Assembly (NCBI GenBank): GCA_041687095.1
Contig: JAWLCQ010000100.1
Location: forward strand, 1-16,613
Direction of reading: 5' to 3'
DNA: 16,613 nucleotides
From: Phycisphaerae bacterium
GTDB lineage: Bacteria; Planctomycetota; Phycisphaerae; SM23-33
A model generated the notes under the pieces. The model saw only the letters and a list, made by a program, of their open reading frames with translations, was not told where the DNA came from and ran no database searches. Position numbers and translations under genes: made by a program. Positions 1-16,613 of the stretch are shown piece after piece (within the stretch, counting starts at the first letter, position 1; each line of letters begins with the position of its first letter).

Positions 1-91
1 GTGGTAAGCCGGCTTCCTCACTACGGGATCACCAACGGGCGCGGACGATGCGCGGTCCCTGCGCGCTGGCCGTAGTCGGGAGCCGTTTGAA

Positions 92-1926: not shown

Positions 1927-1991
1927 CTGCAAGGCCAGGGAAAGGGGACGGGCTGCACCGTCGTCCGGCGGGGCTGCCCTCGAAACCGGGT

Positions 1992-3314
1992 TTATGTCTG
2001 CTTTCCGCGCAGCCGCCGCATGATGGCCATGTACTGCCGTTTACGGGCAGCGAAGGCGGCGTCGTGGTACAGGTCGCCGAACAGGTCGTACAGGCCCCGG
2101 CGGAGCTGCTCGCGCGTCATGCCGCGCGGCTCGTAGGTCACGTCGAACAGCGTGCAGCGGTCCCAGAACGGAGGCGGATCCAGGCGGCCCTCGCGTTGCA
2201 GGCGGGCGTACAGCGGCGTGCCCGGAAAGGGCGTCAGGACCGTCACCTGGATCTCCAGCGGCTCGGCGGCGGCGACGAAACGGCGGATGTCGTCGAAGAC
2301 TTCGGGGGTGTCCCCGTCGAGTCCGACGATGAAGCACGTGTTCACCGTCACGCCCGTGTCCTGGATGCGGCGGACGGCGTCGACGTACCGATCCGCCTGC
2401 CGCGCCTTCCATCCCGTGGACTCCACCCGCTCCAGCCGTTCGCACGACAGGCTCTCCAAGCCGATAAGCAACTGGTAGCACCCGCTCGCCCGCAGGTCGC
2501 GCAGCAACTCGGGCTGATCGGCGACGGAGAGGTCGGTCTCGGCGAACCAGCGGAGGCCCAGCGGGCCGATCCGCTCGATGAACTCGCGCGACCAGCGGGG
2601 ATCGACGAAGAGGTTGTCGTCGGCGAACTCGATAAAGGGCCTCTCCCAGATCTCGCACACCGCATCGAGTTCGCGGTGGACCTGATCCACGGTCTTCTGG
2701 CGGTAGCCCGGCCCGTACAGCCGCGAGCCCGCGCAGAACTCGCAGCAGTGCGGGCACCCGCGCGAGGTCTGCACGGGGATGCGGTTGTAGTTCTCCGGAT
2801 CCAGGAGGTCGAATCGCGGAACGGGCGCGGTCCGCAGGTCGTACGGCTCGCCTCCCTGGCATCCGTAGGTCCGCTGGAGCGTCCCGCGGGCGAGGTCGGT
2901 CATCACGCGGGGCCAGTGGGGTTCCGCTTCCCCGAGGACGACGGCGTCGGCGTGCTGGAGGGCCTCCGCGGGAAGGGCCGTCACGTGCGGCCCGCCCAGG
3001 ATCACCCGCGTGCCCTGGCGGCGGAGGTGGTCGGCGAGGGCGTAGGCCTCGTGGATCTGAGCGGAGTAGGAGGAGATGGCGGCGACGTCGTAGGGGGGGA
3101 GGCGGCGGAGGTTGAGATCGTCGATGTGGGGGATCTCGGCGTAGTCGAGTTCGACGCCGGGGGGCGTGAGGGCGGCGAGGGTGAGGAGCGAGAGGCTCGG
3201 CAGGGAGGCGATGACGTGCCCGCGGGCGAGGAAGCCCGGCAGGGTCACACCCAGCCACGCCAGTTCCGGGTCGATCACCCGCACCCCGCTCATCGCCAGC
3301 AGCCCCAGGTGCAC
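1992..3314 (-). CDS. B12-binding-domain radical SAM enzyme (class B radical SAM), 440 aa.
   Basis: CxxxCxxC cluster in ...TSRGCPHCCEFCAGS.... The N-terminal region is a Rossmann-like B12-binding domain (RVILGGPHVTALPAEAL...). The length is typical of the family. Confidence 0.85.
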   Translation of the reverse strand: MHLGLLAMSGVRVIDPELAWLGVTLPGFLARGHVIASLPSLSLLTLAALTPPGVELDYAEIPHIDDLNLRRLPPYDVAAISSYSAQIHEAYALADHLRRQGTRVILGGPHVTALPAEALQHADAVVLGEAEPHWPRVMTDLARGTLQRTYGCQGGEPYDLRTAPVPRFDLLDPENYNRIPVQTSRGCPHCCEFCAGSRLYGPGYRQKTVDQVHRELDAVCEIWERPFIEFADDNLFVDPRWSREFIERIGPLGLRWFAETDLSVADQPELLRDLRASGCYQLLIGLESLSCERLERVESTGWKARQADRYVDAVRRIQDTGVTVNTCFIVGLDGDTPEVFDDIRRFVAAAEPLEIQVTVLTPFPGTPLYARLQREGRLDPPPFWDRCTLFDVTYEPRGMTREQLRRGLYDLFGDLYHDAAFAARKRQYMAIMRRLRGKQT

Positions 3315-3317
3315 GGT

Positions 3318-3725
3318 TCACCCTCCCCGCGACAGCAGAAGGATCCAGCCCCACACCTGGATCGCCACGCCGAGCGTGACGCAGGAGGCGGGAATTGGAA
3401 ACAGGTACTTGCACGGTTCCCGCCACGCGGAGAGCAGGCACACAAGGGGCATGAGAAGAGCCCCGGCGATCATGGCCAGGCCCCCGACGGGGAGAGCCCA
3501 CGGCGGAAGGAGGCCCAGTCGCGGACCGCACACGCCGTACAGCACATTGATGATCCCCAAGGCGAAGGCCGCCACGTGACCGAGGCGCATCGCCTGCCGA
3601 CGGAAGCTGCCGTATCCGCCCGCCCAGTGGCGGTCGGCGGCCCAGAGCCCGAAGGTCATCCCCAGCAGGGCCCCCAATCCCATCCCGCACCAGCCGACGG
3701 CAATGTTCCACGATGCGACGTTCAT
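3318..3725 (-). CDS. Small integral membrane protein (about 4 predicted TM helices, 135 aa), function unknown. Immediately upstream of and probably co-transcribed with the radical SAM gene.
   Basis: Hydrophobic helices rich in G/A/L/W. Its stop at 3318-3320 lies 3 nt from the radical SAM ATG at 3314. Confidence 0.55.
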   Translation of the reverse strand: MNVASWNIAVGWCGMGLGALLGMTFGLWAADRHWAGGYGSFRRQAMRLGHVAAFALGIINVLYGVCGPRLGLLPPWALPVGGLAMIAGALLMPLVCLLSAWREPCKYLFPIPASCVTLGVAIQVWGWILLLSRGG

Positions 3726-3897
3726 GCTCCCGCCTTTCCCGTTCGTCTGGTCGGAGTCTACCGCGCTGTCCGCCCCGTGGGAAGGGGACGCGGGGCGCTG
3801 CGTACCCAGATCGATTTCCAGTCGCCAAAGTCCAATGGAGCTGACGCCCTGACGAGGTCCCGTTGCCCCGCGGATCCTGCGGTGCGTGCGGGACGAC

Positions 3898-3964
3898 GGA
3901 CGCCAAATGGCAAGCCACGGTCAGATCCTGTTCGCGGTCTTCCCCGGGCTTGCCATTTGGCGTC
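3898..3964. promoter_or_regulatory. Perfect 19-bp inverted repeat ggacgccaaatggcaagcc / ggcttgccatttggcgtcc with arms 29 bp apart, in the divergent intergenic region between the 4-TM gene and hicB. Candidate operator, terminator or small RNA hairpin.
   Basis: Reverse-complement identity of the two arms was checked by eye. It lies in the 360-bp non-coding gap between divergently transcribed genes. Confidence 0.4.
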
Positions 3965-4086
3965 CGTCCGTCCCCCGCGAACCCGCAGCAGATGCGCGGA
4001 ACATGATGCGCGCGGAACGTTGTCTCCATCACCGCCTGGTGGTTAGACTGATCCGTAGGATTTACCGCTGAGCGTGGAGGTGCACT

Positions 4087-4287
4087 TTGAAGCAACTGCA
4101 GCAGAACATGACGATGATCTACTGGAAGGGCGAGACGCACTGGGTAGGCAAACTGCTGGAGCACCCCGAGATCATGACCCAGGGCGAAACGCTGGGGGAA
4201 CTCGAGGAGAACCTCCGAGACGCCTACCGCATGATGGTCCTTGAGGATGTGCCCGAAGACCACCACACGAAGGCCATCGCGATATGA
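4087..4287 (+). CDS. hicB: Short HicB-family (UPF0150/RNase-H-like fold) antitoxin, 66 aa.
   Basis: ...IYWKGETHWVGKLLEHPEIMTQGETLGELEENLRDAYRMMVLED... matches the short HicB pattern (hhhh-dg-W-a-v-elPg-v-tqG-TleEa-eNl-eA). TTG start at 4087 lies 6 nt after a GGAGG at 4076-4080. Internal ATGs at 4108 and 4114 are alternatives. Confidence 0.6.
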   Translation: MKQLQQNMTMIYWKGETHWVGKLLEHPEIMTQGETLGELEENLRDAYRMMVLEDVPEDHHTKAIAI

Positions 4288-4465
4288 AGCGAAAGAGTTC
4301 GTCCACCGCCTCTCCCGGGACGGTTGCGTGCTCCTTCGCTCCGGGGGCAGACATGACATCTACCTCCATCCCAAGACGGGGCGGAAGCAACCGGTTCCCC
4401 GGCACGTGGAGATCGACGACGCCCTTGCACGACACATCCGCAAGTTCCTGGGCCTGGAACCGTAG
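4241..4465 (+). CDS. hicA: HicA-family mRNA-interferase toxin (YcfA-like). The canonical ATG (4284) is out of frame. The body is readable only from TTG 4241 or ATG 4247 inside hicB. Possible frameshifted pseudogene or start-shifted gene.
   Basis: Body ...KEFVHRLSRDGCVLLRSGGRHDIYLHPKTGRKQPVPRHVEIDDALARHIRKFLGL matches the HicA consensus (GSH...HP...vPrH...lkqlgl). The hicB TGA overlaps ATG 4284 in ATGA. A 1-nt indel in the A-run around 4292-4294 separates that ATG from the HicA frame. Confidence 0.55.
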   Translation: MRMCPKTTTRRPSRYEAKEFVHRLSRDGCVLLRSGGRHDIYLHPKTGRKQPVPRHVEIDDALARHIRKFLGLEP

Positions 4466-4487
4466 CAAAGATTTCTTCCGAATCCAC

Positions 4488-4516
4488 TTGCCTTTTCGCC
4501 AAAGCGCGCAATACTA
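4488..4516 (+). promoter_or_regulatory. Weak sigma70-like promoter candidate TTGCCT-N17-ATACTA in an AT-richer stretch about 215 bp upstream of pspA1.
   Basis: Hexamer spacing is 17 nt. This is a local AT-rich island in a 70% GC background. Motif-level guess only. Confidence 0.2.
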
Positions 4517-4621
4517 CAATTAGATACGCATGCTTCTGATGCGCTCCGGTCCGCTCGTGGGGGCGGAACTGCCGGGGCGCTTCGGGCGATGAGAAGGGCC
4601 GCGACGGTCGAAGTTTCTCCC

Positions 4622-4657
4622 GCTGATAGCTGATAGCTAACGGCGGATGGCTGAGAG
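4622..4657 (+). repeat. Array of 7-bp units GCTGATA GCTGATA GCTAACG GCGGATG GCTGAGA upstream of pspA1.
   Basis: Period-7 repetition read directly from the sequence. The same unit recurs in direct and inverted arrays at 5677-5778. Confidence 0.6.
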
Positions 4658-4731
4658 CTTCCTCCCTCCCGCCCTTCGTCGCCGGTGATCTCCGCCCCAG
4701 GGCGGGGAGCCTAGCAGAGAGGAGCACTGTC

Positions 4732-5460
4732 ATGGGGCTGTTTGCACGTCTACACCGCATCACTGTGGGCCGCGTCGAGGCCTTCCTTGCGCGCGCCGAG
4801 GACCCCGAGATCATCTTCCCCCAACTCGTCCGCGAGATGGAGGACCAGTTGCGCCTCGCGACCGACGCCGAGGCCAAGGCCGCCGCGGCCGTCAAGGCCG
4901 CCCAGCGCGACCTCCGCACCGCCGCCGAGAGCGGGCAGCGCATGCACCGCGGGGCCGCCCTCGCCCTCCAGCAGGGCGACGAGGCCACCGCCCGCAAGGC
5001 CCTCGCCGCCCAAATCGACGCCGAACGCTCCGCCGCCCAGGCCCACGACGCCGTCGGCGGCGCCGAGGCCACCCGACTCCAGGCGGAAGGGGCGCGGCAG
5101 CAGATCCAGCGCCAACTGGAGGAGCTGCGCTCCAAGCGCAACGAGATCCTCACCCGCTCCCGCGTCGCCCAGACCCGCCAGAAGATCCAGCGGACCGTCG
5201 GGGGCTCGGCCGGGACGACCGACACCATCCTCGACGCCGTCGCCCGCCTGGAGGCCGGGGTCGAGGAGGTCGAGGCCGAACTGGAGATCCAGTCCCGCCT
5301 CACGGGCGGACCGGCGACGGGCCCGTCGCTGGAGGCCAGGCTCTCGGAACTCGAGGGCCAGGCCCAGATCGAATCCCGCCTCGCCGAGTTGCGGCGGAGC
5401 GTGGAAGGCGAGGGCGACAGCGCGCCCGCGGTGGCGGAAGCGGCATCCGAAACCCAGTGA
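4732..5460 (+). CDS. pspA: PspA/IM30/Vipp1 family protein (phage-shock protein A-like, ESCRT-III superfamily), 242 aa. Paralog 1.
   Basis: N-terminus MGLFARLHRITVGRVEAFLARAEDPE...LVREMEDQL matches the PspA family N-terminal helix (E. coli PspA [27 protein letters not shown]...IQEMEDTL). Long coiled-coil body. GAGGAG RBS lies 7 nt upstream of the ATG. Confidence 0.9.
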   Translation: MGLFARLHRITVGRVEAFLARAEDPEIIFPQLVREMEDQLRLATDAEAKAAAAVKAAQRDLRTAAESGQRMHRGAALALQQGDEATARKALAAQIDAERSAAQAHDAVGGAEATRLQAEGARQQIQRQLEELRSKRNEILTRSRVAQTRQKIQRTVGGSAGTTDTILDAVARLEAGVEEVEAELEIQSRLTGGPATGPSLEARLSELEGQAQIESRLAELRRSVEGEGDSAPAVAEAASETQ

Positions 5461-5488
5461 TCTTCCTGCGTCCCGCGCGTCCACAACG

Positions 5489-5509
5489 CCCCCGGACTGC
5501 GTCCGGGGG
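5489..5509 (+). terminator. GC-clamp hairpin CCCCCGGAC-tgc-GTCCGGGGG (9-bp perfect stem) 28 nt after the pspA1 stop. Probable intrinsic terminator. A similar hairpin lies at about 5571-5592.
   Basis: Perfect inverted repeat followed by a tgtcgtgg tract. Position is immediately 3' of the CDS. Confidence 0.45.
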
Positions 5510-5676
5510 GTGTCGTGGCCAGCCACGGTCCTGGGAATAGGGGGACCGGGCGCTTCGGTGACGGAGCGCACCCCCCTGATGCAGTCCGGGGGGCGTTGGG
5601 CGCCGGGGCGCGTTACAACCCGTGCGGAAACAACATGAACGGTCCAGCAGCCACGAGAGCAGAGTTGAAGCCTTTG

Positions 5677-5778
5677 GCTATCAGCTATCAGCTGTCAGCT
5701 AACAGCTTTCAGCAGACTTGTCTGGATTCTCCTCGCTCCTCGCTGATCGCTGATCGCTGATCGCTGAAAGCCGATAGC
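5677..5778. repeat. Large imperfect palindrome built from heptamer arrays. (TCAGCTN)x5 at 5677-5716 and (GCTGATC)x3-5 at 5742-5778 face each other across a 25-bp centre.
   Basis: Units were read directly. The left array is the reverse complement of the right array and of the 4622-4657 array. Confidence 0.6.
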
Positions 5779-5996
5779 TTGTCGGATCGCTGTTCAGGTT
5801 GTTCCTGCGGAGCGCCTGACCCGGATCTGTCCGGGGACGCCGAAACGTCTCCTGGTGGGTCTGGAGTCGGAGACATTTGAGACTGCTGACTTGATTCTGA
5901 ACCATCCGTCCCGTATGGGAATATCGTACGGCGGCGGCCAGGCACCGGCTGAAGGGCCCCCCGTGGGCGAGGCGGCCGGTGGGAAAGGGCGGAAGC

Positions 5997-6668
5997 ATGT
6001 CCATCTTTGAACGCATTCAACGCATCGCCAAGGCCAACGTGAACTGGCTGCTCGACCGGGTCGAGCCGCCCGAGCAGGAACTCGAGTCCCGCATCCGTGA
6101 GCTGGAACAGGCCCTTCGGGAGGGCCGCGAGTGCGCCGCCACCTACGGGGCCACCTTCCGCCGCATGGAACGCGAGCAGGAGCAGCTCCGCCTGCAGCAG
6201 GCCCAGTGGCAGCAGCGGGCGCAGCAGGCGGTGGCGGGCGGGGACGACGACACCGCCCGCCGCGCCCTGGGCGAGAAGGTCCGCCTGGGCGAGCGCGTGG
6301 CCAACCTCACCCCCGGGATCGAGCAGGGCCGCCGAACGTACGACCAACTCCGCGACAACCTCGCCAAGCTCCAGGACCAGCTCCGCGGGGCGAAGCTCAA
6401 GCTCGAGGAACTCCGCTCCCGCCGCCGCACCGCCGAAGCCCAGAAGGCCTTCGGGCAGCACCTCGACGGGGCGCTGGGCGCCGCGGACGGGGCCGCCTTC
6501 GAACGCCTCGAGGACACCGTCCTTCAGACCGAGGCCGAGGTCGAAGTCGCCGACGAGATCCGCGGAACCGCCCTGCTGGACGCGGACCTGGAGCAACGCT
6601 CGCGCGACCTGCAGGTCGACGCCGAACTCCGCGCCCTCAAGGCCGAGTTCGACGGGGACGAACGCTGA
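5997..6668 (+). CDS. PspA/IM30/Vipp1 family protein, paralog 2 (about 223 aa). A different subfamily from paralogs 1 and 3.
   Basis: MSIFERIQRIAKANVNWLLDRVEPPE... is the PspA N-terminal amphipathic helix motif, followed by a coiled-coil body. The ATG is at ORF-track 5979+18. The in-frame GTG at 5979 is a less likely start. Confidence 0.85.
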   Translation: MSIFERIQRIAKANVNWLLDRVEPPEQELESRIRELEQALREGRECAATYGATFRRMEREQEQLRLQQAQWQQRAQQAVAGGDDDTARRALGEKVRLGERVANLTPGIEQGRRTYDQLRDNLAKLQDQLRGAKLKLEELRSRRRTAEAQKAFGQHLDGALGAADGAAFERLEDTVLQTEAEVEVADEIRGTALLDADLEQRSRDLQVDAELRALKAEFDGDER

Positions 6669-6681
6669 AAGGACTCGTGCC

Positions 6682-7362
6682 ATGTGGGACGTCATCACCG
6701 CCGCTTTCCTGCCCGTGAACCTGGTGTTCACCGTGCTGCTGCTCGCGATGGTGCTGTATTGGCTCGCGGTCATCCTCGGGGCGCTGGACACGGAGTTCCT
6801 CAACGTGGACCTCCATGGCGGGGCGGACGCGGGGGCTGACCTCGACGTCCACGCCGACGTCGACCTGGACGGGGACGCCGACGCGGGCTTCGCCCACACG
6901 TGGATGGGGCACATGCTGGCGTTCTTCTACGTCGGGGAAATCCCCGTCATGATCCTCGTCAGCATCCTCATCCTGAGCATGTGGACGATCTCCGTGATCG
7001 CCAACCACTACCTCAACCCGACGGGCTCGCTGCTGCTCTGGACGCCGATCGTCGCGGCCAACCTGCTGGCGAGCCTGCTGGTGCTCAAGGTGGTGGGGCG
7101 CCCCTTCCAGCGGGTCTTCGCGGCGCTGAACACCGACGCCAACGCCCCCCGCCCCGTCATCGGGCGGATCGGGATCGTGCTCACCACGCAGGTGTCCGAA
7201 CGGATCGGACAGGTGGAGGTGCCCGAGCGGGGCGCCCCGCTGCTGCTCAACGCAATCACCGAGGATGGCCGCGTCCTGCGTAAGGGGGATGAGGCCGTAG
7301 TGGTCCGCAGGGACAACGAGCGGGGCGTGTACATCGTCGCCCCCGTAGAACTGGAGACATGA
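6682..7362 (+). CDS. yqiJ: NfeD-like membrane protein (YqiJ/YuaF-type flotillin partner), 226 aa. N-terminal TM helices, an acidic Asp/His-rich loop and a C-terminal NfeD OB-fold beta-barrel.
   Basis: C-terminal ...GRIGIVLTTQVSERIGQVEVPERGAPLLLNAITEDGRVLRKGDEAVVVRRDNERGVYIVAPVE fits the NfeD short-form beta-barrel pattern. It starts 13 bp after the pspA2 stop. Its stop overlaps the flotillin ATG in ATGA (7359-7362). Confidence 0.7.
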   Translation: MWDVITAAFLPVNLVFTVLLLAMVLYWLAVILGALDTEFLNVDLHGGADAGADLDVHADVDLDGDADAGFAHTWMGHMLAFFYVGEIPVMILVSILILSMWTISVIANHYLNPTGSLLLWTPIVAANLLASLLVLKVVGRPFQRVFAALNTDANAPRPVIGRIGIVLTTQVSERIGQVEVPERGAPLLLNAITEDGRVLRKGDEAVVVRRDNERGVYIVAPVELET

Positions 7363-9425
7363 ACATGATTCTGGCAGCCTTAGCATCGGACGCAATCCTC
7401 TTCGCCTTCGCCCTCGGGGCGGTCATCGTCATCGGCGTCCTGGCGCTGATCGTCAAGTGTTACCGCAAGGTCTCCCAGGGCGAGGCCCTCATCCGCAACG
7501 GGCTGGGGGGGACCAAGGTGAGCTTCTCGGGCATGGTCGTCATCCCCGTCCTGCACAAGGCCGAGTACATGGACATCTCGGTCAAGCGGATCGAGATCGA
7601 CCGCCGCGCCATCCAGGGCCTCATCTGCAAGGACAACCTCCGCGCCGACATCGTCGTCGCCTTCTTCGTGCGGGTGAACAAGACCGTCGACGACGTCATC
7701 AAGGTCGCCCAGTCCCTCGGCTGCGCGCGGGCGAGCGACTCCAAGGCCCTCGTCGAACTCTTCGACGCCAAGTTCTCCGAGGCCCTCAAGACCGTCGGGA
7801 AGCAGTTCGACTTCGCCGAGCTGTACATCAACCGCGTCCGCTTCCGCGAGCAGATCCTCGACATCATCGGGACCGATCTGTCGGGCTACGCCCTCGAGGA
7901 CGCCGCCATCGACTACCTCGAACAGACCGACAAGAAGCTCCTCAATCCCGACAACATCCTCGACGCCGAGGGCATCAAGAAGATCACCGTCCTGACGGCC
8001 GAGCAGTTCGAACTCGCCAACGCCCGCGAGCGTGAGAAGGACAAGACGATCAAGAAGCAGGACGTCGAGGCCGGGGAGGCCATCCTCGAACTGCAGCGCC
8101 AATACGCCGAGGCCGAGGCCAAGCAGAAGCGCGAGATCGCCGAGGTCCAGGCCCGCGAGGAGTCCTCCGCCCACCAGGTGCAGGCCCAGGAGCGTCAAAA
8201 GGCCGAGAAGGCCCGCATCGCCGCCGACGAGGACATCGCCGTCGCCGAGGAGAACCGCCTCCGCCAGATCATCGTCGCCGCCAAGAACAAGGAACGCACC
8301 GAGGCCGTCGAGATCGAACGCGTCGAACGCGAACGCGGCCTGGAGGCGACCGAGCGCGAGCGCCTCGTCTCCCTCGCCCAGCTCGCCAAGGACAAGGCCG
8401 TCGAGTCCGAGCGCAAGGAACTGCAGGACGTCGTCCGCACCCGCGTCGAGGTCGAACGCGGTGTCGCCGTCGAGGAGGAACGCATCAAGGACACCCGCGA
8501 GTTCGCCTCCGCCGACCGCTCCAAGCGCGTCCAGATCACCAAGGCCGAAGAGGAAGCCGAGCAGGCCCTCGTCAAGGACATCAAGCAGGCCGAGGCCGCC
8601 CGCAAGGCCGCCGAGCACTACGCCCAGCAGCAGCTCATCGACGCCCAGGCCCACCTGGAGGCGTCCGAGAAGAACGCCGACGCCAAGAAGGCCCTCGCCG
8701 CCGCCGGGGTCAAGGAATCCGCCGTCGAAGGCATCGCCGAGGCGGAGGTCCTCGAGGCCAAGGCCCGCGCCTTCCGCGCCCAAGGCCAGGTCGAGGCCGA
8801 CATCCTCGCCCTCAAGGCCGACGCCAAGGAGAAGGACGGGACCGCCGAGGCCACCGTCGCCCAACGCAAGTACGCCGCGGAGGCCGAGGGCATCACCGCC
8901 AAGGCCGAAGCGATGAAGCTCTTCAACGACGCGGGCAAGGACCACGAGGAGTTCAAGCTCCGCCTCCAGAAGGACCTCGAAGTCGAACTCGCCGAGATCC
9001 GCATCCGCAAGGACGTCGCCGCCGAACAGGCCAAGCTCGTGGGCGAGGCCCTCAAGAGCGCCAAGATCGACATCGTCGGGGGCGAGAACCGCTTCTTCGA
9101 GCGGCTCGTCAACTCCATCACCACCGGAAAGATGGTCGACCGCGCGGTCCAGAACAGCGAGGTCCTGCAGGACTTCCGCGCGGCGATCGTGGGGGCGGAC
9201 GGGCAGGAGACGATGACCCGCATCCGCGAGATGGTCGGGCGCTTCGGGCTCTCCAGCGAGGACGTCAAGAACCTCACGGTCTCAGCGCTGATGATGAAGC
9301 TCATCGGGCTCGCCCAGGACCAGGAGAAGGGCCTCCTCCGCAACCTCCTCGACGCCGCCCACGCCGCCGGGATCTCCAACCACCCCGTCGCGACGTACCT
9401 CGCCCCGGCGGTGGAGACCAAGTAG
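7359..9425 (+). CDS. yqiK: Flotillin-like SPFH/band-7 protein of the YqiK type, 688 aa, with an unusually long Glu/Ala/Lys/Arg-rich coiled-coil region.
   Basis: N-terminal TM segment then ...YRKVSQGEALIRNGLGGTKVSFSGMVVIPVLHKAEYMDISVKRIEIDR...DIVVAFFVRVNKTVDDVIKVAQSLG. This aligns closely with E. coli YqiK (LYRRASAEQAFVRTGLGGQKVVMSGGAIVMPIFHEII...VDVVVAFFVRVKPSVEGIATAAQTLG). It is translationally coupled to the upstream NfeD gene. Confidence 0.9.
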   Translation: MNMILAALASDAILFAFALGAVIVIGVLALIVKCYRKVSQGEALIRNGLGGTKVSFSGMVVIPVLHKAEYMDISVKRIEIDRRAIQGLICKDNLRADIVVAFFVRVNKTVDDVIKVAQSLGCARASDSKALVELFDAKFSEALKTVGKQFDFAELYINRVRFREQILDIIGTDLSGYALEDAAIDYLEQTDKKLLNPDNILDAEGIKKITVLTAEQFELANAREREKDKTIKKQDVEAGEAILELQRQYAEAEAKQKREIAEVQAREESSAHQVQAQERQKAEKARIAADEDIAVAEENRLRQIIVAAKNKERTEAVEIERVERERGLEATERERLVSLAQLAKDKAVESERKELQDVVRTRVEVERGVAVEEERIKDTREFASADRSKRVQITKAEEEAEQALVKDIKQAEAARKAAEHYAQQQLIDAQAHLEASEKNADAKKALAAAGVKESAVEGIAEAEVLEAKARAFRAQGQVEADILALKADAKEKDGTAEATVAQRKYAAEAEGITAKAEAMKLFNDAGKDHEEFKLRLQKDLEVELAEIRIRKDVAAEQAKLVGEALKSAKIDIVGGENRFFERLVNSITTGKMVDRAVQNSEVLQDFRAAIVGADGQETMTRIREMVGRFGLSSEDVKNLTVSALMMKLIGLAQDQEKGLLRNLLDAAHAAGISNHPVATYLAPAVETK

Positions 9426-9447
9426 CGGAGCCGTGACGGCGAAGAGG

Positions 9448-9637
9448 AAATCCGAAATCCGAAACACGAAGTCCGAAACAAATTCGAAACGGCAAATTCA
9501 AATGACAGAAACTAAGGAACACCCCAGCGGGCGCCCACAGGCTTGTACAGCGGGGTTCGCTTGCGAGCGTCCGTTTTGAACATTTGAGTTTCGTGCTTTG
9601 AATTTGTTTCGGATTTCGTGCTTCGGATTTCGGATTT
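9448..9637. repeat. AT-rich inverted-repeat element. 57-nt arms (9448-9504 and 9581-9637, about 47/57 identical as reverse complements) are each built from 8 heptamer units (AAATCCG / CGGATTT) and flank a 76-nt centre. Candidate MITE, structured RNA, RNase III processing site or regulator binding array. It ends 26 nt before the giant gene's ATG.
   Basis: Arms were aligned by hand after reverse-complementing. The period-7 internal structure was read directly. The AT content is strikingly higher than the 70% GC surroundings. Confidence 0.7.
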
Positions 9638-9662
9638 GGGAGCTGCAGAACCGAGGATCGGT

Positions 9663-12600
9663 ATGACTGAGCAGAAGGAACAACAGGCGTCCCCGCCTCC
9701 GCAGACACAGCTCGAAGGTGGGACGTACGAGATCATCCGCCGGCGACTGGCGGAGCGGGGGCAGGAGCTGCGCCAGCGGATCGAGCAGCTCAACGACGCC
9801 CGCAAGGACGTCTTCGGGACCATCGAGACCCAGCTCACCGCCAGCGAGTCAATCTCCACCGACAACAACTGCGTCCCGCGGGACATGGTGTCCGTGGGGC
9901 GCAGCTTCCTCTTCGGGTACAACGTCTTCATCGGCCTGCGGGCCCAGACCGTGCTGGAGGATGTCTTCGCCCAGTACGAATGGGCCGATGGCGCCTTCCG
10001 CCGCCAGGAGCTGACGCTCCTGCGCGGGGAGCGGTTCGAGACCGACTTCCGCAACCTCTACAAGTACTACCGCCACACCACCTTCGCGAAGTTCCACGAG
10101 GCGGGCCCGCACCTGTACCTCGTCTTCCGCACGGGCAAGGCCGTCACCGACGTCAAGACCTTCAAGTTCCTCCTCCGCGGGGAGGCCCTGGAGTACGTCG
10201 ACAACCGCAGCGACCACGAGTACGCCTTCCCCCCCCAGCAGGAGTTCGACTGGACGCGGGTGACGCACGACATGCAGCGCAGCGGCCGCTGCCCCCACGT
10301 CTCCATCGCCGACCGCGTCTTCGTCGAGACGATGGGCGGGGACCTGACGATCAAGATCGAGGACAACACCGAGAGCGGGGAGGGCATCTACTCCGAGCCC
10401 GTGGACAACCCCGACCAGACCCTCGACGACGCCGAGATGTACTACGCCCTCGTCGGGAACCTCATCGTCCTCAAGATCCGCCCCTACCAGGAGAAGGCCT
10501 GGCGGCACATCGTGTACAGCGAGAAGGCCCAGCAGGCCGTCCGCATCGACTCCATCGCCGACGCCTGCGTCCTGCTGCCCGACGGGCACGGGCTGATCTT
10601 CCCCCGAGGGTGCTACCTCCAGACGGGCGAGCTGAAGCTCTTCGAGATCGAGATCGAGGACATGGTCTTCGATCGCCGCATCGCCAGCCCCAACGGGGAG
10701 GACTACCTCTACCTCTTCTACAACCGCGACAGCGGCACGTACGTCCTGCTGGGCTACAACGTCATCGCCCAGCGCGTCGCCACCCCCATCGTCTGCAACG
10801 GGTACTCGCTCTTCGACGACGGGACGCTCCTGTACTTCCGCGCGGGCACGCAGCCCCAGAAGCACCACACGCTCCAGGTCTGGCAGACGCCCTTCCGCGG
10901 GCCCGACTTCCGCCAGGAGGTCCGCACCGACTCGCACCTCTACCGCATCGGCAACAAGGACATCGTCCGCTGCATGGCCGAGTGCCACGAACTGCTCGTC
11001 CTCCTGGGCAAGGAGGACACCTACGCCAACCTCTACGTCGACATCGCCCGCACCGCGCAGAACATCCTCGACGGGTACTTCTGGCTCAACAGCCCCGACA
11101 CCTTCCGCCTCGACGAACCCCTCCGCGCCCTGCAGGAGGCCGCCGCCGGGGCCATCGCCGAGTTCGAGAAGGTCACCCGCACCCAGCGCGACACCCGCCA
11201 GCGCATCGCCGCCGCCCGCGACCGCGTCCGCAAGGCCATCGCCTCCATCGACTACTACCACCTCGACGACATCGGCACCTTCGTCCGCCTCCTCGCCGAA
11301 CTCCGCGCCCTCCGCGGCGAGGTCATCGGCCTCAAGGACCTGCGGTACGCGGACCTGCCCCTCGTCGAGGCGCTGGAGGCCGAGGTCGCCCAGCACGCCG
11401 AGACGCTCTCCGCCCGCTGCGTCGAGTTCCTGCTGCAGCCCGAGGCGCTGGCGCCGTACGTCCAGCGGATCGAGGCCCACCAGGCGGCGATCCCCGAACT
11501 CGCCAAGGTCACCGACGCCAAGGCCCTCGCCGAGCAGCTCGCCGCCGCCACCGCGGAGCTGGAGATGCTCATCGAGATCGTCAGCAACCTCAAGATCGAC
11601 GACGCCACGCAGACGACGGCGATCATCGACGCCATCTCGCTCGTCCTCGCCCAGCTCAACAAGGCCAAAAGCGCCCTCAAGAACCGCACCTCCGCCCTCG
11701 CCGCCAGCGAAGGCGCCGCCGAGTACGCCTCCCAGACCCAGCTCATCGACCAGGCCGTCATCAACTACCTCGACGTCTGCGATGCCCCTGACCGCTGCGA
11801 CGAGTACCTCGGGAAGGTCATGGTCCAGCTCGAGACCCTCGAGTCCCGCTTCGCGGACTTCGACGACTTCGTCGTCCAACTCGCCCAGAAGCGCGAGGAG
11901 GTCTACGGGGCCTTCGAGTCCCGCAAGGCCCAGCTCGTCGAGGACCGCAACCGCCGCTGCTCCGCCCTCCTGTCCGCCGCCCAGCGCGTCCTCAAGGGCG
12001 TCCGCAACCGCGCCGCCGCCCTCGCCACCCTCAACGAGATCAACGCCTACTTCGCGTCCGACCTCATGATCGAACGCGTCCGCGAAACCGTCCGCCAACT
12101 CCGCGCCCTGGGCGACACCGTCAAGGCCGACGACATCGACTCGCAGCTCAAGAGCCTCCAGCAGGACTCCGCCCGCCAGCTCAAGGACCGCCAGGCCCTC
12201 TACGAGGACGGGGAGAGCGTCATCCGCTTCGGGCGCCACCGCTTCAGCGTCAACCACCAGAACCTCGAACTCACCACCGTCCTCCGCGACGGGGAGCTGT
12301 ACCTGCACCTCACGGGCACGGGGTTCTTCGAGCGGGTCACCGACCCCGACCTGCTCGCCACCCGCGACACGTGGGGCCTGGAGTGCGTGAGCGAGAGCCC
12401 CGCGGTCTACCGCTCCGAGTACCTCGCCTACCTCCTGCTCCGCGACGCGCAGGAGCGGGGCGAGGCGGCCGTCGAGGAACTCGCGGGGCTCGACGACGAC
12501 GCGCTGCTCCAGCGGGTGCAGGCGTTCATGGCCCCGCGGTACGCGGAGGGGTACGTCAAGGGCGTCCACGACGCCGACGCCGCCCTCCTCCTCCGCGCGC

Positions 12601-15044
12601 TGCTGCACCTGCGGGCGTCGGTGGGGCTCCTCGCCTACGCCCCCCCCGCCCGCGCCCTGGCGAGCGTGTACTGGCGATGGCAGGAGGACGGGGAGGCGAA
12701 GGCCCGGCTCTCCGCGCGTTTGGCGGCGGCGGGGAGGGCCCGCACGCTCTTCGCCGACCGGCGGATCGACGGGCCCTACATCGCCGAACTCCGCGACGCC
12801 CTCGCGGGCTTCGCCGAGCGGACGAGGCTCTTCGACGCCCAGCACGTCGCCCCCGCGGCCGAGTACCTCTACCACGCCCTCGCCGCCAACGGGTCGGGCC
12901 CGTCCGCCCCCGCGCCCTTCGCGCTCAGCGCGGTGGCGGCGGGGATCCGCAAGCGGTTCGAGTCGCACCTGCGGCACAGGAAGCACGATTCGCACTTCAC
13001 CTCGGCGGCCGAGGCGCTGGCGGACGACCTGGTGAACGGGTATCGGCTGCGCCGGGAGTGGGTGGCGTCGTACCTCGGCGCACATGGGAGCGCGGAGGAG
13101 CACGAGTTCGCCGACGAAGTCGCCGCCGCCCTCCTCGACGGGCAGTCCCCCCCCGCCGTCATCGACGTCCCCCTGGCGGTGGACCTGGAGGGCCTGGCGG
13201 GATCGCACCCGCGGATCCAGGACGGCAAGTGCCGGGTGAACTACGGGCACTTCCTCACCCGCCTGCAGCACCACGAGCGGGAGGTGGCCCCGAAGTTCCG
13301 GGCGTACGTGGAGGCGAAGAAGCGCCTGCTGGCGGAGGCCTCGGAGGCGATGCGCCTCGACGAGTACCAGGCGCGGGTGCTGACGACGTTCGTCCGCAAC
13401 AAGCTCATCGACAAGGTCTTCCTGCCGCTGGTGGGCGACAACCTCGCCAAGCAGATCGGGACCGTGGGGCAGGACAAGCGGACGGACCGCCAGGGGTTGC
13501 TGCTGCTGATCAGCCCCCCGGGGTACGGCAAGACGACGCTGATGGCGTACGTCGCCAACCGCCTGGGGCTGATCTTCGTGAAGGTCAACGGGCCCGCCAT
13601 CGGCCACCGCGTGACGAGCCTCGACCCCTCCGAGGCGCCCAACGCCTCCGCCCGGTCCGAGCTGGAGAAGATCAACCTCGCCTTCGAGATGGGCGACAAC
13701 GTGATGATCTACCTGGACGACATCCAGCACTGCCACCCCGAGCTGCTCCAGAAGTTCATCCCCCTCTGCGACGCCACCCGCCGCGTCGAGGGCGTGTACA
13801 AGGGGCGGACGAAGACCTACGACCTGCGCGGCAAGCGCGTGTGCGTGGTGATGGCCGGGAACCCCTTCACCGAGAGCGGGGAACGCTTCCAGGTCCCCGA
13901 CATGCTCACCAACCGCGCCGACACCTACAACATCGGCGACATCGTGGGCGACAACCGAAGCGAGTTCGAACTCAGCGTCATCGAGAACTGCCTCACCAGC
14001 AACCCCATCCTCGCCCCACTGATGAACCGCTCGCAGGAGGATGTCTACGCCCTCATCCGCCTCACCGAGACGGGCGAGCGGGAGGGCATCGAGTTCGAGG
14101 GCGCCTACTCCCCCGACGAACTCAACGAGTACGTCTCCGTCCTCCGCAAGCTCTTCATCGTCCGCGACGTGGTCCTCAAGATGAACGCCCAGTACATCGC
14201 GTCGGCCGGGACCGCCGACGAGTACCGCACCGAACCCCCCTTCCTCCTCCAGGGCTCGTACCGCAACATGAACCGCATCGCCTCGCGGGTCCTGCCCGTG
14301 ATGAACGACGCGGAGCTGTGGACGCTCATCGAGTCCAGCTACGAACAGGACGCCCAGACCCTCACCACCTCCGCCGAAGCGAACCTGCTCCGCTTCCGCG
14401 AACTCGTCGGCCGACAGACCCCCCAGCAGGCCGCCCGCCTCGAGGAGATCCGCAAGACCTTCCGCCGCAACCTGCTGCTGGGCGGGGAGAGCGACGACAA
14501 GTTCGGGACCATGATCCGCCAGCTCAACGCGTTCTCCGCGGGGCTGGACTCCATCCGCGACGTGCTCGCCGGGGGGGTCGGAGCCCTGGCCAAGGCGAAG
14601 ACGCCCGAGGCGCCCGACCCGCTCCGCCAGACCGCCGACGCCGTCCTCGGCCGCATGGATCGCATCGTCACCGAACTCCGCGAGCAGCGCAAGGCCCTGA
14701 TCGAGCACGACTCCGCCCAAAGCGCCGCCGACGCCGCCCACGCCGCCGCCGGACTCACGGGCATCCTCGAGGAGCAGTTCCGCACGATGGAGACGTGGCT
14801 GCGACCCGTCGCCCGGACGGAGGCGGGACGCGCCCAGTACGCCAACGACCTCGTCCGCCGCTTCGAGGACATGATCGACGGGTACTCCCGCCTCGTGGGC
14901 ATCCTCAAGGAGCGGCAGGCGGGGCACGACGCCGACGAGGCCGACGTGGAGATCACGGTGCGGAGCGGGGATGCGGATCCGCAGGAACCGCCCGATGCCG
15001 AAACGGACGTGACCGAGAACGACGCGAGCCACGAGCAGACGTAA
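9663..15044 (+). CDS. Giant 1793-aa soluble protein with one MoxR/AAA_5-type AAA+ ATPase module in the C-terminal third. Walker A GYGKTT is near residue 1287, Walker B DD at 1352-1353, and a sensor-1 Asn near 1400. The long N-terminal region is mixed beta-rich and coiled-coil, and the tail is acidic. No named family recognised.
   Basis: ...LLLISPPGYGKTTLMAYVANRLG..., ...VMIYLDDIQHCHPELLQKFIPLCDATRRVEGVYKGRTKTYDLRGKRVCVVMAGNPFTESGERFQVPDMLTNRADTYNI... parallels MoxR (hhhhDEINRa-p--qsaLLeamqe...atqNP...lp-a-lDRF). GAGGA RBS lies 5 nt upstream of ATG 9663. The ORF-track start 9618 is an upstream extension reading through the IR element. Strong coding periodicity over 5.4 kb. Confidence 0.85.
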   Translation: MTEQKEQQASPPPQTQLEGGTYEIIRRRLAERGQELRQRIEQLNDARKDVFGTIETQLTASESISTDNNCVPRDMVSVGRSFLFGYNVFIGLRAQTVLEDVFAQYEWADGAFRRQELTLLRGERFETDFRNLYKYYRHTTFAKFHEAGPHLYLVFRTGKAVTDVKTFKFLLRGEALEYVDNRSDHEYAFPPQQEFDWTRVTHDMQRSGRCPHVSIADRVFVETMGGDLTIKIEDNTESGEGIYSEPVDNPDQTLDDAEMYYALVGNLIVLKIRPYQEKAWRHIVYSEKAQQAVRIDSIADACVLLPDGHGLIFPRGCYLQTGELKLFEIEIEDMVFDRRIASPNGEDYLYLFYNRDSGTYVLLGYNVIAQRVATPIVCNGYSLFDDGTLLYFRAGTQPQKHHTLQVWQTPFRGPDFRQEVRTDSHLYRIGNKDIVRCMAECHELLVLLGKEDTYANLYVDIARTAQNILDGYFWLNSPDTFRLDEPLRALQEAAAGAIAEFEKVTRTQRDTRQRIAAARDRVRKAIASIDYYHLDDIGTFVRLLAELRALRGEVIGLKDLRYADLPLVEALEAEVAQHAETLSARCVEFLLQPEALAPYVQRIEAHQAAIPELAKVTDAKALAEQLAAATAELEMLIEIVSNLKIDDATQTTAIIDAISLVLAQLNKAKSALKNRTSALAASEGAAEYASQTQLIDQAVINYLDVCDAPDRCDEYLGKVMVQLETLESRFADFDDFVVQLAQKREEVYGAFESRKAQLVEDRNRRCSALLSAAQRVLKGVRNRAAALATLNEINAYFASDLMIERVRETVRQLRALGDTVKADDIDSQLKSLQQDSARQLKDRQALYEDGESVIRFGRHRFSVNHQNLELTTVLRDGELYLHLTGTGFFERVTDPDLLATRDTWGLECVSESPAVYRSEYLAYLLLRDAQERGEAAVEELAGLDDDALLQRVQAFMAPRYAEGYVKGVHDADAALLLRALLHLRASVGLLAYAPPARALASVYWRWQEDGEAKARLSARLAAAGRARTLFADRRIDGPYIAELRDALAGFAERTRLFDAQHVAPAAEYLYHALAANGSGPSAPAPFALSAVAAGIRKRFESHLRHRKHDSHFTSAAEALADDLVNGYRLRREWVASYLGAHGSAEEHEFADEVAAALLDGQSPPAVIDVPLAVDLEGLAGSHPRIQDGKCRVNYGHFLTRLQHHEREVAPKFRAYVEAKKRLLAEASEAMRLDEYQARVLTTFVRNKLIDKVFLPLVGDNLAKQIGTVGQDKRTDRQGLLLLISPPGYGKTTLMAYVANRLGLIFVKVNGPAIGHRVTSLDPSEAPNASARSELEKINLAFEMGDNVMIYLDDIQHCHPELLQKFIPLCDATRRVEGVYKGRTKTYDLRGKRVCVVMAGNPFTESGERFQVPDMLTNRADTYNIGDIVGDNRSEFELSVIENCLTSNPILAPLMNRSQEDVYALIRLTETGEREGIEFEGAYSPDELNEYVSVLRKLFIVRDVVLKMNAQYIASAGTADEYRTEPPFLLQGSYRNMNRIASRVLPVMNDAELWTLIESSYEQDAQTLTTSAEANLLRFRELVGRQTPQQAARLEEIRKTFRRNLLLGGESDDKFGTMIRQLNAFSAGLDSIRDVLAGGVGALAKAKTPEAPDPLRQTADAVLGRMDRIVTELREQRKALIEHDSAQSAADAAHAAAGLTGILEEQFRTMETWLRPVARTEAGRAQYANDLVRRFEDMIDGYSRLVGILKERQAGHDADEADVEITVRSGDADPQEPPDAETDVTENDASHEQT

Positions 15045-15087
15045 GTGGCACCGTGCCCCGACGCTTGCGTCTCAGGGAAGCAAGTGA

Positions 15088-15239
15088 CGTGGGTGCCACG
15101 GCTGCGCCGTTTGCAGCCGTGCTGGCGTGGGTGCCACGGCTGCGCCGTTTGCAGCCGTGCTGGCGTGGGTGCCACGGCTGCGCCGTTTGCAGCCGTGCTG
15201 GCGTGGGTGCCACGGCTGCGCCGTTTGCAGCCGTGCTGG
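15088..15239 (+). repeat. Four perfect tandem copies of a 38-bp unit cgtgggtgccacggctgcgccgtttgcagccgtgctgg. Each contains a 9-bp-stem hairpin (cacggctgc-gccgttt-gcagccgtg). A degenerate inverted copy and three 21-bp repeats (15269-15331) follow.
   Basis: Copies were compared base by base. 38 is not a multiple of 3 and there are no spacers, so this is neither a coding repeat nor a CRISPR array. Confidence 0.8.
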
Positions 15240-15423
15240 CGGGAAGGACACGGCTGCAGACAGCGCAGCCGTGGCACCCGCAGTAGAAGCCGTGGCACCC
15301 GCAGTAGAAGCCTGGGCGCCCGCAGTGGAAGGCTGGGTGCCGTGGTTTGCGGAGCGCAGCGGAGCAACCACGTCAAACCGACGTGGCAGCCCGAGCCAGG
15401 CGGTACCGTAGTGGCATGCAACG

Positions 15424-15445
15424 CCCCCCGACCGGGTCGGGGGGG
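15424..15445 (+). terminator. GC-clamp hairpin CCCCCCGAC-cgg-GTCGGGGGG (9-bp perfect stem) between the repeat region and pspA3. Same hairpin family as 5489-5509.
   Basis: Perfect inverted repeat read from the sequence. Confidence 0.4.
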
Positions 15446-15570
15446 TGAGCCTGGAGAAGACGAAGCTTCGCGTTCGCGGACAGCAGCGCGAAGTACCGAT
15501 ACGAACGGCAGATGTCAACCCTGTCCCCGGCCGCACGCTGTTTGCGGTCCGGGGGCATCAGGATCGCAGT

Positions 15571-16248
15571 ATGGGATTCATTGATAGACTCAAGCGAATC
15601 ACCCTCGGACGGGTGGAGGCGTTCCTGGCCGCCCAGGAGACCCCCGAAACCGTCCTGCCCCAACTCGTCGAGGAGCTGGCCGCCAAGGTCCGCCAATCCG
15701 CCGATGCCGAGGCCAAGGCCCTCACCGCCGTCAAGGCCGCCCAGCGCCGCTGCGATGAGGCCCGCGGGCGGTCCCAGCGGATGGGCCAGGGGGCCCACTT
15801 GGCGCTGCAGGCGGGGGACCCCGACCTCGCCCGCCGCGCCCTCGCCGCCCAACTCGACGCCGAACGCGAACTCGACGCCCACCTCCCCCCCCTCGCCGCC
15901 GCCGAGTCCGCCCTGGAGTCGGCGAGGGCGGCGAGGCGGCAGTTGGGCGAGACGCTCGAGCAGGTGAAGGCGCGGCGGGACGAGCTGATCGCCCGCGCCA
16001 AGGCCGCCCGCGCCCGCCAGACCGCCCCCCCCCAGCGTGGATCCATCCTCGACGCCGTCGCCCGCATGGAGGAGAAGGTCGGACACGCCGAGGCCCACGC
16101 CGACGCCCGCGACGAAGTCGCCCGCACACTGGGCCCCGACGTGGTCGAACGCGACCTCGAAGAACTCCGCCGCAACGCCGAAGTCGAACGCCGCCTCCAG
16201 GAACTCAAGGCCCGCCTCGGTGGGCAGGGGCAGGGGGAGCAGGCGTAG
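15571..16248 (+). CDS. PspA/IM30/Vipp1 family protein, paralog 3 (225 aa). Closely related to paralog 1.
   Basis: MGFIDRLKRITLGRVEAFLAAQETPETVLPQLVEELAAKV... parallels paralog 1 (MGLFARLHRITVGRVEAFLARAEDPEIIFPQLVREMEDQL). ATG 15571 was chosen over the ORF-track start 15445, whose N-terminal extension is not PspA-like. Confidence 0.85.
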   Translation: MGFIDRLKRITLGRVEAFLAAQETPETVLPQLVEELAAKVRQSADAEAKALTAVKAAQRRCDEARGRSQRMGQGAHLALQAGDPDLARRALAAQLDAERELDAHLPPLAAAESALESARAARRQLGETLEQVKARRDELIARAKAARARQTAPPQRGSILDAVARMEEKVGHAEAHADARDEVARTLGPDVVERDLEELRRNAEVERRLQELKARLGGQGQGEQA

Positions 16249-16306
16249 GGCCTCACCGGCGGATCGCAACGGACGCCAAAGGGCAAGCCACTGCTGACCC
16301 GTCCCG

Positions 16307-16446
16307 CGCGCCTGCGCCAGCGCGTCTGCGGCGGCGCGTCTGCGGCGGCGCGTCTGCGGCGGCGCGTTTGCGGCGGCGCGTTTGCGGCGGCGCGTCTGCG
16401 GCGGCGCGTTTGCGGCGGCGCATCTGCGGCAAGGCGTCTGCTGCGG
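16307..16446. repeat. About 9-10 tandem copies of a 14-bp unit cgcg(t/c)ttgcggcgg immediately 3' of pspA3. A GGGGGTC-tccc-GACCCCC hairpin follows at 16445-16462.
   Basis: Units were counted directly (16321-16432 are near-perfect, with degenerate copies at both ends). 14 is not a multiple of 3. Confidence 0.8.
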
Positions 16447-16613
16447 GGGTCTCCCGACCCCCCACCTCCTGCGCCGGGGGTCTCCTGACCTCGTTGTTCT
16501 ACACATCTCGGCCTCGCGGGGCGGCAGGGACCCGATTCCGGGCGTCGGTCCGACAGCCCCGACAGGGGCGCGGGACAGTAGCCGGGGGTGGAGCGCAGCG
16601 GAACCCCCGGAAG

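Follow-up and report, generated by a model that had tools for sequence, protein, structure and literature searches.

An AT-rich inverted repeat of 190 nt, at positions 9448–9637 of a 16,613-nt stretch of DNA from Phycisphaerae bacterium (Planctomycetota; GenBank assembly GCA_041687095.1, contig JAWLCQ010000100.1, positions 1–16,613 of the forward strand; referred to here as the window), is, judged by sequence comparison, one copy of a multi-copy palindromic repeat family that is dispersed across phyla. The element lies between the stop codon of a flotillin-like gene (9425) and the ribosome-binding site (9653) of a giant DUF3686 ATPase gene, as had been described in an earlier note on this DNA. 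We consider it probable that the element is a miniature of a cassette of the intervening-sequence (IVS) type that carries no open reading frame (ORF), that it occupies an operon spacer and places a stem that RNase III can cut in the transcript, and that it is selfish or neutral.

The two arms of the window element occupy positions 9448–9504 and 9581–9637 (57 nt each) and are separated by 76 nt. The coordinates and arm length given in the earlier note were exact, and the complementarity of 86% (49 of 57 positions pairing) is above the 82% that it had claimed. The A-rich left arm, which was defined by the inverted repeat and by its periodicity, reads AAATCCG AAATCCG AAACACG AAGTCCG AAACAAA TTCGAAA CGGCAAA TTCAAAT on the plus strand; the T-rich right arm is its reverse complement. 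Self-matching at a lag of 7 nt was 0.52 for the left arm (reached by 0 of 2000 shuffles) and 0.54 for the right arm (reached by 2 of 2000), and Tandem Repeats Finder reported a period of 7 with 4.6 and 5.0 copies, respectively. The earlier description of each arm as eight AAATCCG heptamers holds for the period and for the length, which is 8.1 units, but only the outer four to five units are AAATCCG-like; the inner units drift toward AAACAAA, TTCGAAA and TTCAAAT. The 18-mer AAATCCGAAATCCGAAAC (three or fewer mismatches) occurs four times in the window, in each case within the element, where 0.01 occurrences would be expected by chance. The GC content is 39% in the arms and 59% in the variable centre (9505–9580). 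The element was confirmed as the most AT-rich stretch of the window (overall GC 0.684) at scales of 60 nt (GC 0.37) and 190 nt (GC 0.47); at 100 nt it ties with position 357.

RNA folding of positions 9440–9645 gave −95.2 kcal mol−1 compared with a mean of −57.2 for shuffled sequences (z = −9.1; 0 of 200 shuffles as stable). The stem that had been anticipated in the event of transcription was also predicted here; it is approximately 57 bp long and imperfect, with segments of 16 and 24 bp that are nearly continuous. The centre has no significant structure of its own (z = −1.2 on the plus strand and −1.7 on the minus strand, no better than shuffles) and contains two weak terminator-like hairpins, one per strand, with stems of 5–8 bp. 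No promoter-like site was detected in the element. Rfam returned no match in the window at the gathering threshold, and none at E ≤ 10 beyond a sub-threshold match to MIR8562 (38 bits versus a threshold of 211), which reflects a generic long hairpin. The element contains no runs of G and hence has no G-quadruplex potential.

The family was delineated from the arms. The arm 18-mer AAATCCGAAATCCGAARC matched at least 119 stretches in a species-representative genome collection, with approximately 35 expected by chance. By the phylum labels of the metagenome-assembled genomes (MAGs), the matches listed included 54 from Planctomycetota, 19 from Desulfobacterota, 14 from Verrucomicrobiota and 14 from Patescibacteria, a few each from Pseudomonadota, Bacteroidota and Chloroflexota, and single matches in six further phyla including Omnitrophota. 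The GC content of the matched loci ranges from 33% to 69%. Two motifs outside the seed, CGAAACAAAT and GAAGCACGAAAT, were present in 68 and 47 of the 119 listed loci, respectively, in 6–10 phyla, and scrambled controls gave 0; the 18-mer matches are therefore not chance runs of heptamers. An arm profile (consensus AATCCGAAATCCGAAACCCGAAATCCGAAACAAATTCGAAATTCAAATGTCCAAA) was built iteratively from the arms in nhmmer. It identified 231 arms and 77 clean plus/minus pairs with a length of 69–264 nt (median 147 nt). In the window the profile matched the left arm at 9449–9504 on the plus strand (42.4 bits, E = 2.4e-11) and the right arm at 9578–9636 on the minus strand (46.6 bits, E = 1.2e-12), and this was the sole family copy found there. 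Several 8-kb loci hold additional copies without the seed, so the copy number per genome would be high, and we infer dozens to hundreds of copies per genome. The outer 38–41 nt of the right arm of the window element are 100% identical to copies in Tepidisphaeraceae (L002 and L118), Gemmataceae (L112) and a Pseudomonadota MAG (L111). In IMG/VR, 26 viral contigs carry the seed 18-mer, eight of them with a complete two-arm hairpin as judged by the profile. Neither a sequence search nor a topic search of the literature found the repeat family described; the coverage of these searches was incomplete and an earlier description is possible.

Arms of the family are approximately 50 nt in length, AT-rich and composed of degenerate heptamers, with well defined ends that usually read 5'-AAATCCG...CGGATTT-3'. 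The centres vary in sequence and length (11–181 nt), even inside one genome. The arms are retained across phyla, as is the order in which the variant units (AAGCACG, AAATCCG, AAACAAA, TTCAAAT and so on) follow one another, and the number of outer AAATCCG units differs between copies. Copies fill the spacers in which they lie, beginning a median of 21 nt past the upstream stop codon and ending 32 nt ahead of the downstream start. Where the orientation of the flanking genes could be resolved, it was co-directional for 39 copies, convergent for eight and divergent for four (background 384, 90 and 103, respectively). Divergent spacers are depleted (4/51 versus 17.9% in the background, p = 0.037) and convergent spacers are not enriched (8/51 versus 15.6%, p = 0.55).

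An inverted pair of heptameric simple-sequence repeats could also be generated locally by polymerase slippage, like the GGGAATC pairs of Xanthomonas. The variable number of outer AAATCCG units speaks for this origin, as do the intergenic tandem repeats outside the family, among which heptamers dominate: outside family arms and called genes, loci L001–L119 and the window hold 76 arrays of period 7, seven of period 6 and 30 of period 8. Xanthomonas genomes contain approximately 70–75 inverted heptamer pairs each, of which 65–70% lie in co-directional, 16% in convergent and 7–8% in divergent contexts (PMC4692102), a split nearly identical to that of 76, 16 and 8% found for the present family (PMC4692102; PMC2700814). 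Slippage is nevertheless very unlikely as the source of the element, given the conserved order of variant units across phyla, the 41-nt stretch that is identical to copies in distant taxa, the well defined outer ends and the occurrence of the same arms on either side of one specific gene subfamily (see below). It probably changes the number of outer units.

The orthologous position was inspected at 19 related flotillin→DUF3686 junctions (L120, L121 and 17 metagenome loci). The arm profile (E ≤ 1) gave no match at any of them and the element is absent. The spacers at these junctions are 0–204 nt in length; one junction has an overlapping ATGA, and several short hairpins rich in GC are present. 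When positions 9448–9637 are removed from the window, what appears to be the original spacer is left: 22 nt after the flotillin stop codon (9426–9447, as read from the sequence) and 25 nt before the giant gene (9638–9662), 47 nt in total, which is typical of the range in relatives. The second remainder carries the Shine–Dalgarno sequence GAGGA (9653–9657) outside the stem, and this 3' flank is unpaired in the predicted fold. Because of the absence at 19 junctions and the 47-nt spacer that remains on removal, the element is best described as a lineage-specific insertion and not as an ancestral regulator of the giant gene.

The earlier note had offered a terminator or attenuator dedicated to the giant gene, or a small RNA, as possible roles, and the great stability of the hairpin, its position directly upstream of the ribosome-binding site of the giant gene and the two weak terminator-like hairpins of the centre are all compatible with a locus-specific cis-regulatory RNA of one of these kinds. 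An intrinsic terminator has a GC-rich stem followed by a U-tract, unlike the centre of the element, which is not significantly structured and offers weak matches of 5–8 bp; nor are family copies enriched between convergent genes. A small RNA finds no counterpart in Rfam, no promoter-like site and no G·U bias in the stems. Both many dispersed copies, present in many genomes, and a lack of orthologous conservation were found, the two outcomes that the earlier note had named as arguing against a function specific to this locus. A locus-specific regulator is largely refuted by the lack of conservation already, and we regard this explanation as highly improbable.

Some larger members of the family contain a gene. 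Three unusually long elements (L040, L079 and L046) enclose an ORF of 121–124 amino acids that matches PF05635 (23S rRNA intervening-sequence protein) and TIGR02436 (four helix bundle protein) above the cut-offs. At least 7999 homologues of the encoded protein, referred to as S23p, were found at E ≤ 1e-10, most of them on short contigs. In a Gemmataceae MAG (L244), the stop codon of coxM is followed by an A-rich arm (1462–1505), an S23p ORF (1501–1875), a T-rich arm (1886–1931) and coxS. In L245–247 the S23p ORF lies between two complete miniature hairpins. The arms of the family thus flank a gene of this S23p subfamily in five of the five cases inspected at the DNA level (L040, L079, L046, L244 and L245–247). 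The cassettes interrupt operons, namely coxM/coxS and a DUF58 gene with the gene that follows it; two additional S23p homologues lie between co-directional genes (PSD1 and DUF1501). The centres of the two hairpins that flank the gene in L245 (1343–1999) are near-identical, an observation relevant to the way in which the cassette is assembled or copied. A back-translated pattern search for S23p in the viral contigs found none, and no reverse transcriptase, template repeat or variable repeat was found adjoining the inspected cassettes.

A putative remnant of the start of an S23p ORF was located in the window element at 9502–9521 on the plus strand (ATGACAGAAACTAAGGAACA). The ORF of L046 starts within the inner arm (ATGACCGAAACTCAAAAC) and the centre of the window element starts with ATGACAGAAACTAAGGAAC, the two matching at 13 of 15 nt. 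The motif ATGAC[CA][AG]A is present in the left half of 21 of the 77 family copies. On gapped alignment of the centre with the full-length cassettes, a convincing match was confined to the arms and to the initial 15 nt of the ORF. Positions 9502–9521 are also identical at 15 of 20 nt to the start of the giant gene (9663–9682), and both begin with ATGAC; approximately 0.8 such matches would be expected by chance and this is probably a coincidence.

Other S23p subfamilies, from cultured organisms, show the same inverted layout with different heptamer units. On plasmid pNPUN02 of Nostoc punctiforme the S23p gene is preceded by (CAATTCG)×5 and followed by (CGAATTG)×5, forming 36-nt arms that are 97% complementary. 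The flanks are GAAGGAT.../...TCATAAT in Chlorohelix and (GTAAAAA)n in Nostoc TCL26-01, and the inverted arrays are less regular around the S23p genes of Anabaena, Pseudanabaena and Bernardetia. On plasmids of Nostoc and Anabaena (L248, 592–948; L249, 592–939), an S23p gene with inverted heptamer flanks lies between cas1 and cas2 on the opposite strand. S23p genes bounded by heptamer-periodic inverted arrays were not found described in a literature search of incomplete coverage, so that an earlier description is possible.

The long terminal inverted repeats, small size, high copy number and intergenic location of the family recall a classical miniature inverted-repeat transposable element (MITE), that is, a deletion derivative of an insertion sequence with a DDE transposase that is mobilized in trans through its terminal inverted repeats. 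The proposal of a MITE in the earlier note was borne out as far as multiple dispersed copies and the absence from the 19 junctions are concerned, but not in the classical sense. For 55 copies with defined ends, the observed counts of target-site duplications of 0, 1 and 2 nt were 35, 16 and 4, respectively, compared with 38, 12 and 4 in shuffled flanks, so that there is none beyond chance; the flanks of the window element are GAGG and GGGAG. No transposase was found between the arms of any larger copy in the approximately 1.9 Mb of fetched loci, where PF05635 is the only gene enclosed. Further departures from a classical MITE are the heptamer period of the 57-nt arms and the variation of the centres inside one genome. 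A classical MITE can accordingly be given hardly any probability. Of the readings offered in the earlier note, a MITE-like repeat and an RNase III substrate come closest; the latter gains indirect support from the full-length relatives, which are cassettes of the IVS type, a kind of element in which RNase III is known to cut the terminal stem (PMC4990558).

According to the explanation that we favour, the miniature of an IVS-type cassette, a dispersed palindromic repeat has inserted between two genes of a conserved operon, where the spacer is short. The S23p gene would have been lost from the window copy, or never have been present in it, with at most its first codons kept. The element would be transcribed together with the operon, since it lies inside a conserved operon the genes of which overlap or sit close to each other in several relatives. 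In the transcript the arms would pair into the imperfect stem of approximately 57 bp, and RNase III, which is specific for double strands, would cut this stem, by analogy with the terminal stems of rRNA IVSs and with Correia elements. The cut would separate the flotillin message from that of the giant gene and uncouple their stabilities, and the Shine–Dalgarno sequence of the giant gene, being outside the stem, would stay free. For the host, the element is more likely to be selfish or neutral than adaptive.

RNase III cleaves the terminal stem of the S23p-encoding IVS in Coxiella 23S rRNA in vitro, and the ends have been mapped by rapid amplification of cDNA ends; tandem GACAGAT heptamers precede its ORF and an origin from a mobile element has been hypothesized (PMC4990558). 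Cleavage of IVSs by RNase III is not followed by ligation, and IVSs occur sporadically, a pattern that suggests horizontal transfer (PMC11270868).

Several points weigh against this explanation. Cleavage by RNase III in this organism is taken over by analogy from other systems, transcription through the element is assumed from its place in the operon, and the IVS label is applied to the family by its architecture. No conserved rRNA motif was found in any fetched locus, and all family copies found lie outside rRNA genes. The window copy contains no PF05635 ORF; the ORF opened at 9502–9521 is a dead end of 25 codons that terminates at a TGA (9577–9579). The putative S23p start comprises a match at just 13 of 15 nt, to a motif seen in just 21 of 77 copies. 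Descent may have run in either direction, from cassettes to miniatures through deletion, or from palindromes already in place to cassettes through the arrival of S23p genes; in L245 the gene lies between two complete hairpins and not inside one. The context statistics are based on crude gene calls. Relative to the sense strand, stems in co-directional contexts contain 104 G·U and 96 A·C oppositions, which amounts to no strand bias. Compensatory pairing over the outer 45 nt was 0.72 within elements and 0.72 between elements; when whole halves were compared, the own partner had a median rank of 45 of 77, with a mean score of 39.8 compared with 41.0 for the halves of other copies. The own partner matches no better than the arms of other copies do, and selection on RNA pairing at individual loci is therefore not visible. 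The palindrome arises because both arms copy one consensus, and pairing is not maintained at each locus.

Conservation of the arms as sequence and not as pairs would be expected if they were paired arrays of heptad protein-binding sites, read as DNA or RNA by an abundant protein (nucleoid-associated, or the S23p/Avd-like protein itself), with the palindrome as a by-product. The identity of 38–41 nt across classes and phyla, the AT-rich composition retained in a genome of 68% GC and the variable spacing between the arms point in the same direction. Avd-like proteins (bAvd) have been reported to bind nucleic acids. PF05635 resembles Avd, an accessory protein of diversity-generating retroelements (PMC10053308), and in Geobacter metallireducens paired inverted tandem-repeat sites with variable spacing, one pair of which lies between proB and proA, are annotated as putative sites of a global regulator (IHF/HU) (PMC2700814). 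The candidate binding protein is only hypothetical, however, and a single regulator acting across more than ten phyla is unlikely unless the element encodes it, whereas most copies have no ORF. Moreover, the copies lie inside operons and not in promoter regions, as the depletion of divergent spacers indicates. We consider binding arrays an unlikely explanation.

The element belongs to no named family; its architecture comes closest to those of the rRNA IVSs, the inverted heptameric simple-sequence repeat pairs of Xanthomonas and the paired tandem-repeat sites of Geobacter. It was not assigned to a named family because it has no ORF and lies outside rRNA, which sets it apart from IVSs, and has no target-site duplication, which sets it apart from MITEs. 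With the 23S rRNA IVSs that carry an S23p ORF (Coxiella, Leptospira, Salmonella and others) it shares complementary ends and a long stem, and the gene-carrying relatives with the same arms share the cargo, a PF05635/TIGR02436 four-helix-bundle gene. The heptamers beside the ORF start of the Coxiella IVS (PMC4990558) have their parallel in the period-7 arrays of both window arms and of the cassettes of Nostoc punctiforme, Chlorohelix and Nostoc TCL26-01. The sporadic occurrence of IVSs, for which horizontal spread has been suggested (PMC11270868), has its parallel in a family that spans many phyla, and short versions without an ORF exist. Unlike an IVS, the window element lies in an mRNA intercistronic spacer and not in helix 25 or 45 of 23S rRNA, has no S23p ORF and belongs to a multi-copy family. 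The stem of the Coxiella IVS is 28 bp, whereas the family arms are approximately 50 nt and heptamer-periodic.

The Xanthomonas GGGAATC pairs, the cyanobacterial short tandemly repeated repetitive (STRR) sequences and the paired sites of Geobacter metallireducens likewise consist of two inverted arrays of 7-nt units with variable spacing and are dispersed and intergenic. The present unit is AT-rich and has no G-quadruplex potential, unlike that of Xanthomonas, and the fixed order of variant units common to several phyla distinguishes the family from simple heptamer arrays. The AAATCCG family is also linked to a protein-coding cassette, a link which to our knowledge is unreported for the known heptamer pairs.

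Small palindromic multi-copy repeats that are co-transcribed in operons are further represented by the Correia elements of Neisseria, the enterobacterial ERIC/IRU sequences and the REP/BIME repeats. Among these, the hairpins of Correia elements undergo processing by RNase III, and those of REP sequences stabilize upstream mRNA. The window element probably works in the manner of Correia or ERIC elements. It differs from all of these in size and arm structure, and from Correia elements in having no TA duplication. REP sequences are palindromes of 20–40 nt with a GTAG/CGTC tag and an associated RAYT transposase (PMC3733652), whereas the present arms are 57 nt, start with AAATCCG and have neither a tag nor a RAYT partner. 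The family crosses phyla, unlike the genus-restricted repeats of the Correia, ERIC and REP types. The PF05635 cargo of the full-length relatives resembles the Avd accessory proteins (PMC10053308); the inspected cassettes differ from diversity-generating retroelements in that no reverse transcriptase or template/variable repeats adjoin them, and the window copy encodes no protein.

A broader proposal, which we regard as speculative and not likely to be correct, is that heptamer-periodic inverted arrays of bacterial intergenic DNA in general are the ends or ORF-less relics of one cross-phylum class of selfish elements carrying an Avd-like S23p gene. This class would include the AAATCCG family and possibly the cyanobacterial STRR sequences, the Xanthomonas GGGAATC pairs and the Geobacter paired sites, and the rRNA IVSs would be its best-known landing site. 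RNase III would excise the transcript at the arm stem, and the excised RNA, perhaps together with the Avd-like protein and a reverse transcriptase acting in trans, might spread the element. If true, this would account for the defined ends of the elements, for the lack of target-site duplications and for the way in which the elements have spread across phyla and reached phage contigs.

The operon interrupted by the element comprises genes for PspA/IM30 (5979–6668), a YqiJ/NfeD-like membrane protein (6688–7362), a flotillin/YqiK-like SPFH protein (7359–9425) and a giant protein of 1793 residues with DUF3686, DUF7902 and AAA regions (9663–15044, start codon ATG at 9663; Pfam DUF3686 at 5.5e-181). 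The relatives of the window are Phycisphaerae/Planctomycetota MAGs, with 73% identity at best; the gene order is identical in the two nearest relatives, the flotillin of which is 73% identical to that of the window. The PspA–YqiJ–flotillin–DUF3686 operon is widely conserved, with at least 7989 flotillin homologues at E ≤ 1e-20. We know of no published function for it. The flotillin-like ORF gave no Pfam, NCBIfam or PADLOC match at E ≤ 0.001; its relatives are named 'flotillin family protein' or YqiK. Searches of the flanking genes against PADLOC and NCBIfam gave nothing meaningful. A different insertion is present at the flotillin→DUF3686 junction in L126 (606–1310; also in L137 and L124), with an ORF of 234 amino acids that contains HVH and RYIHRNP motifs. 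By these motifs it resembles a Y1 transposase of the IS200/RAYT type. Selfish DNA seems to have landed at this junction more than once.

Other repeats were recorded in the window and in the fetched loci. A second heptamer palindrome (5683–5713 and 5749–5779; GCTATCA.../...GCTGATC), with 31-nt arms that are 81% complementary, lies approximately 200 nt upstream of the PspA gene. The earlier note had suggested that this palindrome, based on GCTGATN, and the element may share one regulatory principle; the architecture is indeed alike, but a shared regulator is unsupported, and heptamer arrays are abundant in such genomes in general. A short GCTGATA array is present at 4622–4638. The 19-mer GCTGATAGCTGATAGCTGA matched at least 80 IMG/VR contigs, in a few of them as inverted pairs, and no S23p ORF was found near the GCTGATA arrays in 80 viral loci. 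The period-7 arrays counted above outside the family have many different units, and heptamer arrays outside the family form inverted pairs in L064, L083, L090 and L102.

Between the stop codon of the giant gene and a convergent gene (15088–15331), a 38-nt unit is present in 4.1 copies that are 100% identical, each unit forming a hairpin; an inverted partner lies at 15249–15279, and a 21-nt unit is present three times at 15267–15331. The region possibly represents a REP-like array or a terminator. Near the contig end (16306–16446), approximately ten copies of the 14-nt unit GCGCGTCTGCGGCG occur at 88% identity. Further AT-rich patches at 353–457 (GC 0.44 over 100 nt) and 4467–4527 (GC 0.40 over 60 nt) are apparently intergenic and gave no match to the arm profile.

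The hairpin ahead of the giant DUF3686 ATPase gene is not to be taken for a regulator designed to control it, and the insertion may incidentally split the transcript of a conserved membrane-stress operon. Such repeats also give rise to spurious small ORFs and, because most S23p-bearing contigs are short, probably break metagenome assemblies. The family ties an abundant AT-rich palindromic repeat to the enigmatic S23p/four-helix-bundle genes and to rRNA intervening sequences, and provides a testable lead on the over-representation of 7-nt repeats in bacterial intergenic DNA and on the nature of the S23p genes and IVSs.

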